Shown: in pieces, positions 2 through 6,564 of the stretch
How the letters are laid out: each line of letters begins with the position of its first letter
How positions within the stretch are numbered: the stretch's first letter is position 1
Source: Bacteroidia bacterium
Lineage (GTDB): Bacteria > Bacteroidota > Bacteroidia > M30B66
NCBI GenBank assembly: GCA_046302715.1
Contig: JBKCHQ010000076.1
Location: forward strand, 1-62,978
Direction of reading: 5' to 3'
Length of the DNA: 62,978 nt
Notes under the pieces: model-generated
Told to the model about the DNA's origin: nothing
Databases searched by the model: none
What the model saw: the letters and a program-made list of their open reading frames with translations, nothing else
Made by a program: the position numbers and the translations under genes

Positions 2-1362
<1,361 letters not shown>

Positions 1363-1841: not shown

Positions 1842-2723
1842 GTGGAAGTATTACTACTGAGTATTTCGTCGCCATTAATGGCCATTTTTATTTTAATCGA
1901 AATCCTTTACAGCGCTGTACATAAGCAAAATTTATATGAAAGCCGTGATACCGCTGTGAGCATGTTATGTACCGGTTTAAATTTCTTAAATGATCTCGCT
2001 TTTCGATTAGTTACATTGAGCATACTTACATGGTTTTTTGAAGCAGGGCTACAGATATTTTCTGAGCGGGATGCCACCTATTGGATTATGCTGTTCCTTG
2101 CCCAAGACTTGGCCTACTATGTTTTGCATTGTGCTGATCACTATTGCCGTATTTTTTGGGCCATGCATGTAACGCATCATTCGAGCGAAAAATTCAATTT
2201 GGCCGTAGCCATTCGCTCTTCAGTATTTCAGCCGTACTACCGTGTTTTATTTTTCATACCACTTGCCTTACTTGGCTTTAGGGCATTAGATATAGTTTTT
2301 ATGTACGCGGCAACTCAAGTATATGGTTTTTGGGTACATACAGAAACTATTGGGAAGTTGCCAAAATGGTTTGAATTTATATTTGTTACACCTTCGCATC
2401 ACAGGGTACATCATGCTTCAAATGTAGAATATCTAGATTCAAATATGGGCATGGTTCTCATCATATGGGATCGTATTTTTGGTACGTTTAAAGAAGAGAT
2501 GCCCGAAATTAAGCCTCGATTTGGCTTAACAAAAAATATCCATTCATACCACCCTTTTAAAGTCGTATTCCATGAATGGCAAGGTATCATTCAAGATTTA
2601 AAACAATCGCCGGACTGGAAAACTTCATTGAATTACCTATTGAAACCTCCGGGATGGAGTCATACTGGAAGGAGTTTAACCGCAAAACAAATGCGTGAAA
2701 AACAAAGCAAAACAAAGTTATGA
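1842..2723 (+). CDS. Sterol desaturase / fatty acid hydroxylase family membrane protein
   Basis: His boxes HCADH, HVTHH, HT and HHRVHH with hydrophobic helices; GTG start. Confidence 0.88.
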   Translation: MEVLLLSISSPLMAIFILIEILYSAVHKQNLYESRDTAVSMLCTGLNFLNDLAFRLVTLSILTWFFEAGLQIFSERDATYWIMLFLAQDLAYYVLHCADHYCRIFWAMHVTHHSSEKFNLAVAIRSSVFQPYYRVLFFIPLALLGFRALDIVFMYAATQVYGFWVHTETIGKLPKWFEFIFVTPSHHRVHHASNVEYLDSNMGMVLIIWDRIFGTFKEEMPEIKPRFGLTKNIHSYHPFKVVFHEWQGIIQDLKQSPDWKTSLNYLLKPPGWSHTGRSLTAKQMREKQSKTKL

Positions 2724-2843: not shown

Positions 2844-2873
2844 TTTGATTTTTTAAAGATTAATATATCTTTG
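2844..2873 (+). promoter_or_regulatory. Bacteroidota primary-sigma promoter (-33 TTTG, -7 TATCTTTG)
   Basis: TTTG at 2844-2847 and TAnnTTTG at 2866-2873, 18-nt spacer, 37 nt upstream of ATG 2911. Confidence 0.6.
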
Positions 2874-2910
2874 CATGTAGAAGTTTCATCCTATAACAAA
2901 CTTTGAGCAG

Positions 2911-3108
2911 ATGAATAAAAAATTACCATACATTCTTTCGCTAGTGTGCGTTTTTGTTGGCATTAACGGTCTATTTGCAACACCAGTGCCTCCCGGGCCT
3001 ACGATCATTCCAGTTGATGGAGGACTTTCTCTATTGATTGCAGCGTGTGTTGGCGTTGGTGCTAAAAAGCTTTATGATTACAAAAACACTAGGAAATCTG
3101 AGGAATAA
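2911..3108 (+). CDS. Small secreted protein with a PID-CTERM-like C-terminal sorting signal
   Basis: Signal peptide, Pro-rich TPVPPGPTII, then IPVDGG, a TM helix and a basic tail (KKLYDYKNTRK); adjacent to an exosortase. Confidence 0.75.
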   Translation: MNKKLPYILSLVCVFVGINGLFATPVPPGPTIIPVDGGLSLLIAACVGVGAKKLYDYKNTRKSEE

Positions 3109-3129
3109 AAATTCCTTTACTAACCATTT

Positions 3130-3660
3130 GTGTCAGAATCTAAATACAGGGGATTAAATATTTTTTTGATAAAAATATTTTGTTTCTACTTAATTTGGAT
3201 AGTATTTGATGGTTTATTGTCTCATGAATTCCATATTGTTTCTTCAATATGGTCTTTGGGCTATCATATATTTCTAAAAATTATATTATTCGGATCTCAA
3301 ATAGGATTAAATATCCTTGGATACGATTATGTTTCTGGCTATAATTCTTTGGCAATCATTGGGTCTTACGGGGTTGTAATAGGAAATCCCTGTGTAGGCT
3401 TTGGTTTAAGTTATGGTTTTACATCCTTAATTGCAAGTTATCCAGGACCAATCAAGAAAAAATTATGGTTTATTCCATTTGGTATTTTACTCATTAGTTC
3501 TATAAACGTGGCACGTGTTGTTGCTCTAACAACTTCGGTTTATAAAACAGGGGGCTTTGTGCAGATGGAGGAACACGATTTATTCAATAACATCATTTAC
3601 ATTTTTATTTTCCTGATGTGGATAGTGTGGGTTAAGTTTATTAATAAAAATCAACTTTAA
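3130..3660 (+). CDS. Exosortase/archaeosortase family protein
   Basis: Multi-TM protein with Cys (GNPCVG), Arg (INVARV) and His (EHDLFN) in exosortase order and spacing. Confidence 0.85.
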   Translation: MSESKYRGLNIFLIKIFCFYLIWIVFDGLLSHEFHIVSSIWSLGYHIFLKIILFGSQIGLNILGYDYVSGYNSLAIIGSYGVVIGNPCVGFGLSYGFTSLIASYPGPIKKKLWFIPFGILLISSINVARVVALTTSVYKTGGFVQMEEHDLFNNIIYIFIFLMWIVWVKFINKNQL

Positions 3661-3670
3661 TCTTCTTCAA

Positions 3671-4741
3671 TCACGCTTGAAATTGAGCTTTGCTAAATTT
3701 TCGAAGTCGCTCCCTAACTTCAGCCATGTCCGCAGGTATATCTGAATCAAAAAAATGACGTTCACCCGTTTTAGGATGCATAAATCCTAATGATTTAGCA
3801 TGCAGAGCGTGTCGAGGTAAAATACTAAAACAGTTTTCTATGAATTTGGCATAAGAGCCACTCTTAAGTCCTTTTAATACAGCATTCCCCCCATAGGTAT
3901 CATCATTAAAAAGGGTATGTCCTATGTGTTTTAAATGCACCCTAATCTGATGCGTTCTTCCCGTTTCTAGCCTACATTCAATCCAGGTTAAATAGCCGAA
4001 TCGCTCCAGCACTTTATAATGCGTTACCGCATGTTTACCCTGTGATCCATCAGCATATACAGCAAACAATTTACGATCACGCACATCGCGACCAATGTGA
4101 CCAATAATAGTTCCCTCATCCTGCGCTACATTACCCCAAACCAAGGCCTGATAGGTTCGTTCGGTAGTGCGCTCAAAAAACTGCCTGGCCAAATGCGCCA
4201 AGGCATATTCGCTCTTTGCCAGGACCATGATTCCAGAGGTGTTTTTATCAAGGCGGTGCACCAAACCGGGGCGAGGGTCGTTTTGACTGTAGATAGGCAC
4301 ATGTTGAAAGTGATACATTAATGCATTCACCAAGGTGCCGCTGTAATTCCCATAACCAGGGTGTACTACTAATCCGGCCTGCTTATTTATAACAATTACC
4401 GTATCATCCTCAAAGACGATTTCGAGCGGAATGGGTTCGGGCTTTAATTCAATTTCACGGGGTGGCCTTGCAAAAACGATGGCGATCACATCGCCAGGCT
4501 TAACCCGATAATTTGATTTTACCGGTTTACCATTTACATGAATATTGCCCGTATCGGCGGCTGCCTGGATGCGCGTGCGCGAAGTTTTTTCGAGTCTGTT
4601 TTGTAAAAACTTATCAATCCGTAACAGCTCCTGCCCTTTATCCACCACCGTACGATAGTGCTCGAACAGTTCGTCCCCTTCTGCAGTATGATCGGTATCC
4701 GCCCCCTGCAGCTCCTCGTCATTCCATTCAGGATCCATCAA
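3671..4741 (-). CDS. rluD: RluA/RluD family 23S rRNA pseudouridine synthase
   Basis: S4 domain, NKQAGLVVHPG, HRLDKNTSG, GRTHQIRVH. Confidence 0.93.
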   Translation of the reverse strand: MMDPEWNDEELQGADTDHTAEGDELFEHYRTVVDKGQELLRIDKFLQNRLEKTSRTRIQAAADTGNIHVNGKPVKSNYRVKPGDVIAIVFARPPREIELKPEPIPLEIVFEDDTVIVINKQAGLVVHPGYGNYSGTLVNALMYHFQHVPIYSQNDPRPGLVHRLDKNTSGIMVLAKSEYALAHLARQFFERTTERTYQALVWGNVAQDEGTIIGHIGRDVRDRKLFAVYADGSQGKHAVTHYKVLERFGYLTWIECRLETGRTHQIRVHLKHIGHTLFNDDTYGGNAVLKGLKSGSYAKFIENCFSILPRHALHAKSLGFMHPKTGERHFFDSDIPADMAEVRERLRKFSKAQFQA

Positions 4742-6564
4742 TTGCTTTTAATAAAACGTAAGGCTTTATGCGCCCCCTTTTTAGTCGACACACGCATTAA
4801 ATACATCCCATCGGATAAATCAGCCACTTGTATTGATGCGTGGTTTAATCCAACACCAGCCTTGATCATCTTACCCGAAATATCCCAAACGCTCCAATCG
4901 AAATAATCGATGGATGTTGATTTTATATGAACCACATCTGAGGCTGGATTGGGGTACAAAAGCACCCCGTTTTCAGAGGTGGTCAATGCTGCATTACCGG
5001 TTGGCAAAATATAGGGATAACGGAAAACAGGGCGCATCATAAGTGTTCCAGCTGCCGAAGTATAAGGATACCAATTACCATCTAAATTGTAATAAATGCG
5101 ATTGCTGTTATCGAAATTCAAATCAAAGCCCAGATTAAGTTCGGACGAATTTAACTGTGCCCAACCTATATAATACGTACCTGCTGGCAGCGGTAAGGGC
5201 GTATCTAAAGTATAGGTATGAAAAACGTTTAAGCCTTGATGATCGGGATAGGCAACTTCTTTTTCGAGCAATAACGTACCTGGTTGATTGCTGCCTGCTG
5301 CCCAAATCATTAAATAAAAACTCTGCCCATTATTGGCATTAAGTGTTCGGTTAAAATAAAATTGAACCGCTTTTAACGTGTCGGCCACCCAGCTCTCAAA
5401 ACGTTGTGCGGCAAAGCCTCCGGATGGATTATTGATATTTAGTCTGGCCTCCGCCGAACCATCATCCAATGCATAATAATTGCTAAAAACCTGTTCATAC
5501 TTTAAGGAGTCATTGGGGGCAAAATCATCGTCAAGTCCCTCTAAAAAGTAGTTAAGTTGGTAAACCGTGGTTTCGGTACCCGGATCTTCATAAAAGTACT
5601 TTACCGATTCGTTCAATACATATTCATTCCTGTATGCGATTGGCCCTTGCGGATCAGATGCCACTGAATCTACTTTTTCTCCTGCGGCATTGTAGTAGTC
5701 AAATCCATAAGCTATGTTATCGGAACCCAACTTTAAGGAAGTAAGGGATAGATTAAAAAACTCGAGCATGTTTTCCACCCTGTCTGGAATAAAATGCCAA
5801 AGGGGAACCGACTGATAAAAATCTATTAAACTACTTGCCGGATATAAAAAAGAATAATCGTTAAACAAGGTATCGGCTTTATTCCTGCCGGCAGCAAATT
5901 TTATATAGTCGAGATGCCAGTTATCCCAACTGCCATTCAATTGCGCAAAATTTCTGAACCGAAATTGAAATCCATTGAGTAAATAAGAAGAATCGATTAC
6001 AGGTACAATTGCCTGACTAAACGGTTTGAAGTTTTGCGGATAATCTTCGCCTTTAACGCCCCATACCCTGTTCCAAACTGAATCGGAAGGACTGTAAAAT
6101 TCAAGGATTAAGGAATCAACAAATTCAGGAAAGTTGCCTCTACCGCCGGGTTGGTAAAAAAAACTGAGGTAAAGAGAGTCGCCCGCTGTGTAAGGCATTA
6201 GAAAAGGCTTGGACGTTAGGGTATCGGCCGCACCGTTAACATTTATGTTTTGATAGGGTAACCCGTTGGCATCGGTACCATCCAGTGTAGCTGAACCAAT
6301 ACTAGGGGGAAGCAGTGGAAGTGTTCCATTAACCATGGCAGAATTATCCATCCATCTAACGGGATCAGGCACAGAATTCCCTCTAGAAAAGTCTTCAAAA
6401 AAAGGTAGTGAGAGTATCTCTTCAGAACCACGCGAATTATTGGAAAAAACCTTTGAATCGTCTTGCCTTGAAATGGTAAACGGCGGCTCCACCTTTAAAG
6501 CCTGAGCATTAATCCATGCATTGGCAAACATGGACAACAGTATGCACAAAATACTATTCTTCAT
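4738..6564 (-). CDS. Secreted protein with T9SS type A C-terminal sorting domain
   Basis: Signal peptide; C-terminal LYPNPASD...DISGK...LSDGMYLMRV. Confidence 0.85.
   Translation of the reverse strand: MKNSILCILLSMFANAWINAQALKVEPPFTISRQDDSKVFSNNSRGSEEILSLPFFEDFSRGNSVPDPVRWMDNSAMVNGTLPLLPPSIGSATLDGTDANGLPYQNINVNGAADTLTSKPFLMPYTAGDSLYLSFFYQPGGRGNFPEFVDSLILEFYSPSDSVWNRVWGVKGEDYPQNFKPFSQAIVPVIDSSYLLNGFQFRFRNFAQLNGSWDNWHLDYIKFAAGRNKADTLFNDYSFLYPASSLIDFYQSVPLWHFIPDRVENMLEFFNLSLTSLKLGSDNIAYGFDYYNAAGEKVDSVASDPQGPIAYRNEYVLNESVKYFYEDPGTETTVYQLNYFLEGLDDDFAPNDSLKYEQVFSNYYALDDGSAEARLNINNPSGGFAAQRFESWVADTLKAVQFYFNRTLNANNGQSFYLMIWAAGSNQPGTLLLEKEVAYPDHQGLNVFHTYTLDTPLPLPAGTYYIGWAQLNSSELNLGFDLNFDNSNRIYYNLDGNWYPYTSAAGTLMMRPVFRYPYILPTGNAALTTSENGVLLYPNPASDVVHIKSTSIDYFDWSVWDISGKMIKAGVGLNHASIQVADLSDGMYLMRVSTKKGAHKALRFIKSN

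Follow-up and report, generated by a model that had tools for sequence, protein, structure and literature searches.

A two-gene exosortase/PID-CTERM unit with a predicted product of about ten residues in a member of the Bacteroidia

The window, i.e. the whole stretch of 62,978 nucleotides analysed here, comes from a freshwater member of the Bacteroidota and carries a real, expressed and strongly constrained pair of genes for an exosortase-family enzyme and a mini-protein that is its putative substrate, with a sorting function predicted by homology. The pair belongs to a kind that has already been catalogued (NF046080-NF046083 in NCBIfam, PF28310 in Pfam) and is a stripped-down, two-gene, divergent branch within it; a literature search for PID-CTERM returned no paper, and one for XrtX/XrtY no relevant paper. 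New here are an enzyme clade of its own, the family-wide absence of NF046082, and a mini-gene that has no T9SS-cargo gene upstream of it. The features of the locus are as follows:

2844-3660, + strand: AT-rich two-gene unit, mini-gene followed by exosortase-family gene
2844..2873, + strand: Bacteroidetes-type promoter (motif scan), -33 element TTTG at 2844-2847 and -7 element TATCTTTG at 2866-2873
2911-3108, + strand: mini-ORF of 65 aa, MNKKLPYILSLVCVFVGINGLFA/TPVPPGPTII/PVDGGLSLLIAACVGVGAKKLYD/YKNTRKSEE
2911..2979, + strand: predicted signal peptide, aa 1-23 (MNKKLPYILSLVCVFVGINGLFA; MNKK, hydrophobic core and NGLFA), read from the sequence
2980..3009, + strand: core peptide TPVPPGPTII, aa 24-33, which would remain after both predicted cleavages
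3010..3078, + strand: PID-CTERM sorting domain, aa 34-56, consisting of PVDGG, TM helix LSLLIAACVGVGA and KKLYD (NF046080)
3079..3108, + strand: predicted cytoplasmic basic/acidic tail YKNTRKSEE and stop codon, read from the sequence
3130..3660, + strand: exosortase-family protein of 176 aa with GTG start, a polytopic membrane protein (TIGR04178)
Within 3130..3660, + strand: conserved residues Cys88 (3391-3393), Lys111, Asn126, Arg129 (3514-3516) and His149 (3574-3576)

A preliminary description of this DNA had presented the 65-aa protein as a signal peptide, TPVPPGPTII and a PVDGG-TM-basic tail, and the ORF turned out to be built in this way. It passed the PID_CTERM model NF046080 (NCBIfam HMM) with 30.4 bits against a cut-off of 26 over residues 34-56, and a six-frame search of the genome with the same model matched 3010-3078 (31.1 bits, E=1.1e-6), the cut-off being exceeded in none of 14 control genomes searched in six frames. 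PVDGG directly abuts the TM helix LSLLIAACVGVGA, which is followed by basic KKLYDYKNTRK, and the sorting domain stops 9 residues short of the C-terminus. The cognate exosortase gene begins 21 nt downstream of the mini-gene. A local Pfam scan of the mini-protein gave noise matches only; the precomputed Pfam tags PF28310 and PF09721 are present on homologues. Signal peptidase I is predicted to cut after Ala23, 10 residues ahead of the PVDGG motif. The ~11-residue mature peptide proposed earlier agrees with this spacing between the two predicted sites and stays a prediction from sequence; the mature product is most likely a Pro-rich peptide of 10-13 residues.

The second protein had been called exosortase-like with conserved Cys, Arg and His, and this assignment was upheld. 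The enzyme scored 41.5 bits against the exo_archaeo signature TIGR04178 (cut-off 23; 43 bits for the same gene in the genome search), and 29 homologues show little or no variation at Cys88 and Arg129, and at least 90% of them have His149. Cys, Arg and His form the catalytic triad proposed for exosortases (Haft preprint, 10.1101/2023.06.07.544157). The GTG start is kept in relatives, and a local Pfam scan of the enzyme found no match. Its assignment to the exosortase family is thus supported by homology, and cleavage of a sorting tail is predicted. An AlphaFold2 model (pLDDT 88.8, pTM 0.82) is helical throughout, with a single short hairpin. PDB sequences searched with a profile yielded 0 matches at E<=1, and Foldseek with the confident model gave none at E<=0.001 (best TM 0.2-0.3); structural inference ends at the positions of the helices because no solved relative was found.

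Scoring against the subfamily models ranked XrtX first (NF046081, 99.2 bits) and XrtY second (NF046083, 60.3 bits), both below their cut-offs of 170 and 160, and XrtF (TIGR04128) reached 41 bits against a cut-off of 90. An ML tree of 33 enzymes, whose deep branches are only moderately supported, placed the enzymes of the window's family in a clade of their own (97/95), left them outside a group of true XrtX and XrtF (93/86), and split off the XrtY clade with 100/99 support. Given this placement and the sub-threshold scores, the enzyme should not be filed as XrtX and is assigned to its own divergent clade. An exosortase paralog in another genus of the same family (L026, genome G012, 1498-2019) falls with the family clade (98/92) at the end of a long branch; it has no mini-ORF upstream, its catalytic Cys is replaced (GNPCVGFG to NNAAIGVG), and it may be an inactive pseudo-enzyme.

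The enzyme had also been proposed to be dedicated to its neighbour. The 3.06-Mb assembly is 100% complete and holds exactly one exosortase-family gene and exactly one PID-CTERM tail by HMM, the general cut-offs for exosortase and PID-CTERM both being passed at this locus. The scan for other P[IV]DGG-TM-basic tails called for in the preliminary description returned only the locus's own: a regular expression for P-x-D-G-G/TM/basic tails found no further instance among 31,931 open frames of >=40 aa. Since the genome holds one exosortase and one PID-CTERM tail, a one-to-one pairing of a single enzyme with a single adjacent, dedicated substrate is supported by gene content. Such a "dedicated system" layout has been described for exosortases by Haft (10.1101/2023.06.07.544157).

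The AT-richness and the separate promoter noted beforehand were both borne out. The GC content of 2844-3660 is 32.4% compared with 43.2% for the whole window, which places the unit in the lowest 1.4% of 817-bp windows, and the spacer upstream of the mini-gene has 20.9% GC. Horizontal transfer was considered as the source of the low GC and rejected because core-gene synteny is conserved across six genera, and because the low GC is concentrated in the promoter spacer and in a membrane protein gene rich in Phe, Ile and Asn. The Bacteroidetes sigma-A promoter has the consensus TTG/TAnnTTTG, and -33 and -7 motifs of this type precede the mini-gene. RNA contigs covered the unit in two independent freshwater metatranscriptomes; one from run X9 starts at 2879, 6 nt past the -7 box, and the upstream hydroxylase gene has an RNA contig depth of 0 in both assemblies. 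A 384-nt RNA contig (2951-3334, 2 mismatches) bridges the mini-gene and the enzyme gene. The unit is co-transcribed, and the promoter motif together with the contig spanning both genes points to a single promoter.

Within the first 20 kb of the window, RNA contigs came nearly all from atpD/atpC and the mini-gene/exosortase unit, the rest being a few short rluD pieces of depth 2-3 and two faint pieces further downstream. Contig depth, a rough and poor measure of expression in metatranscriptomes that can contain DNA, was ~12 for the mini-gene, 3-5 for the 3' part of the enzyme gene and 4-9 for atpD. In an RNA contig from a related, more distant strain, all three variants inside the mini-ORF fall at third codon positions. 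As a separate observation, atpD (window 2-1362) reads as two frames, 2-334 and 331-1362; in a metatranscriptome contig, an extra T after window position 293 (depth 28/28) restores the Walker A motif GGAGVGKT, and the split is likely an assembly error or a strain variant.

The pair is flanked by genes for a fatty-acid hydroxylase family protein, an RluD-type pseudouridine synthase and a T9SS cargo protein. The first is a membrane protein of the fatty-acid hydroxylase/sterol desaturase family at window 1842-2723 (PF04116, 88 bits), which immediately precedes the unit in nearly every family locus reaching that far. The enzyme is present in 42 of 61 related genomes, and the window's family (six genera) has the gene order hydroxylase, mini-gene and exosortase, followed by rluD and the T9SS-cargo gene on the opposite strand; this order recurs in almost all family loci long enough to show it. 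Conservation of the gene pair in relatives, a point on which the earlier reading had been made to depend, was found in all six genera, with the mini-ORF immediately preceding the enzyme gene in 16 of 18 family loci whose DNA includes the upstream part. Locus L025 is truncated by the end of its contig. In another (L014 of genome G011, ~1150-1560) several indels disrupt the mini-ORF, whose tail continues in-frame into the exosortase ORF, through either decay or poor assembly. One genus carries a PIDQG variant of the motif.

An alignment of 15 family orthologues enabled a comparison of the parts of the mini-protein. Ala at -1 is invariant and the hydrophobic core of the signal peptide varies freely. 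The core peptide has a fixed length of 10 residues (11 in one genus) and follows the pattern T-P-x-P-P-[GDT]-P-x-[IVL]-[IV], its four Pro positions being kept in nearly all orthologues. The TM helix, with a near-invariant Cys, and the KK[IL]YD tail are as conserved as the core. Against the closest orthologue, dN/dS was ~0.05 for the whole mini-ORF, and core plus motif (15 codons) had dN=0.000 at dS=1.58. Across pairs, dN ranged from 0.00 to 0.33 for core plus motif and from 0.17 to 0.92 for the signal peptide; among the more distant pairs, most had core values (0.10-0.33) well under the signal-peptide ones (0.44-0.92). The short mature peptide is therefore the most constrained part of the mini-ORF by dN, and it is no throw-away linker.

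A survey of 301 Bacteroidota genomes sampled across the phylum found PID-CTERM tails in 70, with 1-23 copies each, and among the matches listed all open frames with such a tail were <=168 aa. Translated examples nearly all consist of a signal peptide, A|Q, ~10-12 Pro-rich residues and a PIDGG tail. Searching 1.84 billion representative proteins with a profile built from the window's relatives gave 1143 clusters at E<=0.001; 149 of the best 150 are 49-125 aa long, and the single long one matches only via repeated Pro-rich stretches. The true XrtX enzymes (180-202 bits) are each directly preceded by a mini-gene encoding a Cys pair ahead of PIDGG, and the XrtY-like enzymes by one encoding the acidic core QGPGFDDDVxDT. 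Core sequences thus go by clade, with TPxPPGP here and QPGLPSAPSQA, QGPGFDDDVxDT or Cys-pair forms elsewhere, and other lineages have up to 23 mini-proteins with one to three enzymes. The micro-protein proposed earlier as a substrate is real at this locus and not peculiar to it: small frames are the rule across the PID-CTERM family, and missing cargo is the defining oddity of the family.

Two further observations concern other members of the phylum. In another class, PID-CTERM open frames of 131-137 aa (L054, L055, L056, L072; called from the first ATG in frame) have an N-terminal CxxC...CxxC zinc-ribbon-like part before the hydrophobic segment, so not all members may be simple secreted mini-proteins; the extra part is possibly an upstream extension. 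Genomes G306 and G227 have many PID-CTERM copies (19 in G306), several of them within ~1 kb of contig ends, which suggests that these copies lie in repeated, assembly-breaking DNA.

The reading I favour, and to which I would give an even chance of being right, is that of a self-contained two-gene PID-CTERM/exosortase sorting unit whose freed peptide is passed to an acceptor in the envelope. Here, a single promoter would drive the substrate gene and then the enzyme gene; the 65-aa precursor would be exported by Sec and cut by signal peptidase I after Ala23. Related PID-CTERM proteins show A|Q at the equivalent position, and the Q-rule of Bacteroidetes expects Gln directly after the signal-peptidase cut (PMC5837995). 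The PVDGG-TM-KK tail would then hold the remainder in the inner membrane with its basic end in the cytoplasm, and by homology Cys88, aided by Arg129 and His149, would cut at or near PVDGG on the outer face of the membrane. The freed peptide of 10-13 residues (TPVPPGPTII plus part of PVD) would pass from a thioester intermediate to the acceptor. This acceptor would most likely be the amine of an envelope lipid head group, a lipid being favoured by analogy with the archaeal enzyme ArtA. With no cargo domain present, the product would be the peptide as such, made in quantity; in the window's family the system would be reduced to the enzyme and one substrate, without the third membrane protein of the XrtX type.

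More tentatively, and rather less probably than the sorting unit as such, the Pro-rich decapeptide would be a bulk-made end product whose new C-terminus is joined to an envelope lipid by the exosortase, and which, in lineages with a T9SS cargo gene ahead of the mini-gene, possibly also serves to attach secreted surface proteins. Two additions to this scheme were tried and dropped. The upstream fatty-acid hydroxylase was considered as a source of acceptor-lipid chemistry, and is treated as vertical synteny and not as evidence because the XrtX-like loci checked in other families do not have it and it showed an RNA depth of 0. The N-terminal Thr also prompted the idea that the peptide is polymerised head-to-tail or cyclised, which was rejected as a general mechanism because most relatives expose a Gln that is predicted by the Q-rule to be a blocked pyroglutamate (PMC5837995).

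Alternatively, the enzyme may only hydrolyse the tail, and a free peptide of 10-13 residues may act as a signalling or otherwise bioactive molecule. The anatomy expected for such release is identical to that expected for lipid transfer, the mini-gene is highly expressed, and the core differs between clades as in signalling peptides. However, it is nearly invariant over six genera within the family, unlike strain-specific pheromones, and the pair has no gene for a receptor, transporter or modifying enzyme beside it. A released peptide would also need to cross the outer membrane, and precedents from exosortases and archaeosortases favour retention at the cell (10.1101/2023.06.07.544157; PMC7157517). 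Release is thus unlikely.

Equally improbable is that the mini-protein is not consumed at all, being a permanent subunit or pseudo-substrate of an exosortase whose true substrates carry an unrecognised signal. The strong conservation of the TM helix, with its near-invariant Cys, and of the tail would also fit a stable partner protein; the mini-protein has no cargo, and in a family without the partner NF046082 it could take the place of that protein. Nevertheless, its signal peptide looks cleavable, with Ala invariant at -1, the protein scores above the cut-off of the sorting-domain model NF046080, and the genome has no other tail of the PID-CTERM type. The mRNA depth of the mini-gene is 2-4x that of the 3' part of the enzyme gene, and the numbers elsewhere, up to 23 mini-proteins for one to three enzymes, fit a substrate and not a subunit.

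A role of the anchored peptide as an envelope attachment point or adaptor for type IX secretion cargo appeared less probable still. In 5 of 6 XrtX/XrtY-like loci examined, the mini-gene directly follows a same-strand gene whose product has a C-terminal T9SS sorting domain (XrtX loci L029 and L031; XrtY-like loci L090, L096 and L098), with Por_Secre_tail scores of 37-45 bits in four loci and 25.2 in L031, just below the cut-off of 27. The genes in these five loci encode large proteins, one with SprB and PKD repeats. In the window a cargo gene (4738-6564, 44.4 bits) lies two genes away, as in nearly all family loci reaching that far, T9SS tails number at least 150 in the genome, and expression of the mini-gene is strong. 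However, the window's cargo gene is on the opposite strand behind rluD, and at about one tail per 20 kb a cargo gene this near would be expected by chance with a probability of ~0.13 (150 tails/3.06 Mb), for which reason adjacency in this genome was rejected as evidence on its own. The whole neighbourhood is syntenic, hence its conservation says little. In addition, the N-terminal Gln of most relatives is predicted to be cyclised (PMC5837995, PMC10653852), which would block the N-terminal amine as an acceptor. Finally, the mini-ORF is short (65 aa) and is called hypothetical by the sources that name its product, but a spurious reading frame beside a real exosortase is barely conceivable given that it passes the curated HMM NF046080, has a dN/dS of ~0.05 against the closest orthologue, is covered by RNA contigs, and recurs ahead of the enzyme in six genera as well as in further families.

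For the favoured sorting unit, one enzyme and one substrate without accessory and with a predicted product of ~10-13 residues make a very simple object for mass spectrometry, and the pair would help to answer where bacterial exosortases cut and what the cut protein is attached to. Cargo is absent across the PID-CTERM family, so the tag delivers no protein, which calls for another idea of what "sorting" is for. The product is probably a real envelope component of abundant freshwater Bacteroidota, because the locus is transcribed at an ATP-synthase-like level in natural lake communities. If true, a lipid-joined decapeptide would represent a so far undescribed class of lipopeptide envelope component in Bacteroidota.

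Among known systems, archaeosortase A/PGF-CTERM of Haloferax volcanii likewise uses a homologous intramembrane Cys enzyme that cuts off a motif-TM-basic tail, with lipid attachment coupled to this ArtA-dependent processing at the C-terminus (PMC7157517). In contrast to the window's pair, ArtA serves many substrates per enzyme, which are large glycoproteins of the S-layer and others, and it works in an archaeal membrane that no outer membrane surrounds; the ArtA model stays below 40 bits even for true XrtX and is absent among the matches of the window's enzyme. PEP-CTERM/exosortase A (XrtA, EpsH) shares the enzyme superfamily and the tripartite signal logic, and some of its systems are dedicated one-to-one, as here (10.1101/2023.06.07.544157). 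PEP-CTERM proteins, however, have real passenger domains and exopolysaccharide loci, and no such genes lie beside the window's pair. A RiPP-like molecule had also been suggested earlier; the genes adjacent to the pair include no peptide-modifying enzyme (radical SAM, YcaO, lanthionine synthetase).

Within the phylum, XrtY (NF046083) and the XrtY-like enzymes of Bacteroidia likewise have PID-CTERM mini-proteins encoded ahead of them, but they form a separate clade (100/99) whose model cut-off of 160 is not reached by the window's enzyme, and the cores on the XrtY side are acidic. XrtF was found in no genome of the window's family. The XrtX/PID-CTERM system (NF046080, NF046081, NF046082; PF28310) differs in its enzyme, since that of the window reaches 99 bits against the cut-off of 170 and falls outside the XrtX and XrtF group. 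It also differs in its membrane protein NF046082, which lies immediately downstream of XrtX in 15 other genomes and gave no match at E<=0.01 in 25 of 25 family genomes, the window's own included. The window's core lacks the Cys pair, its mature N-terminus is predicted to be Thr whereas most PID-CTERM relatives expose Gln, and the T9SS-cargo gene found upstream of the mini-gene in most of the checked XrtX/XrtY loci is not upstream here. Nevertheless, both systems occur in the same phylum, both have a mini-gene followed by an exosortase gene after a gap of ~20-35 nt, and in both a signal peptide and a short Pro-rich stretch lead into the same sorting tail, which here too passes its model.
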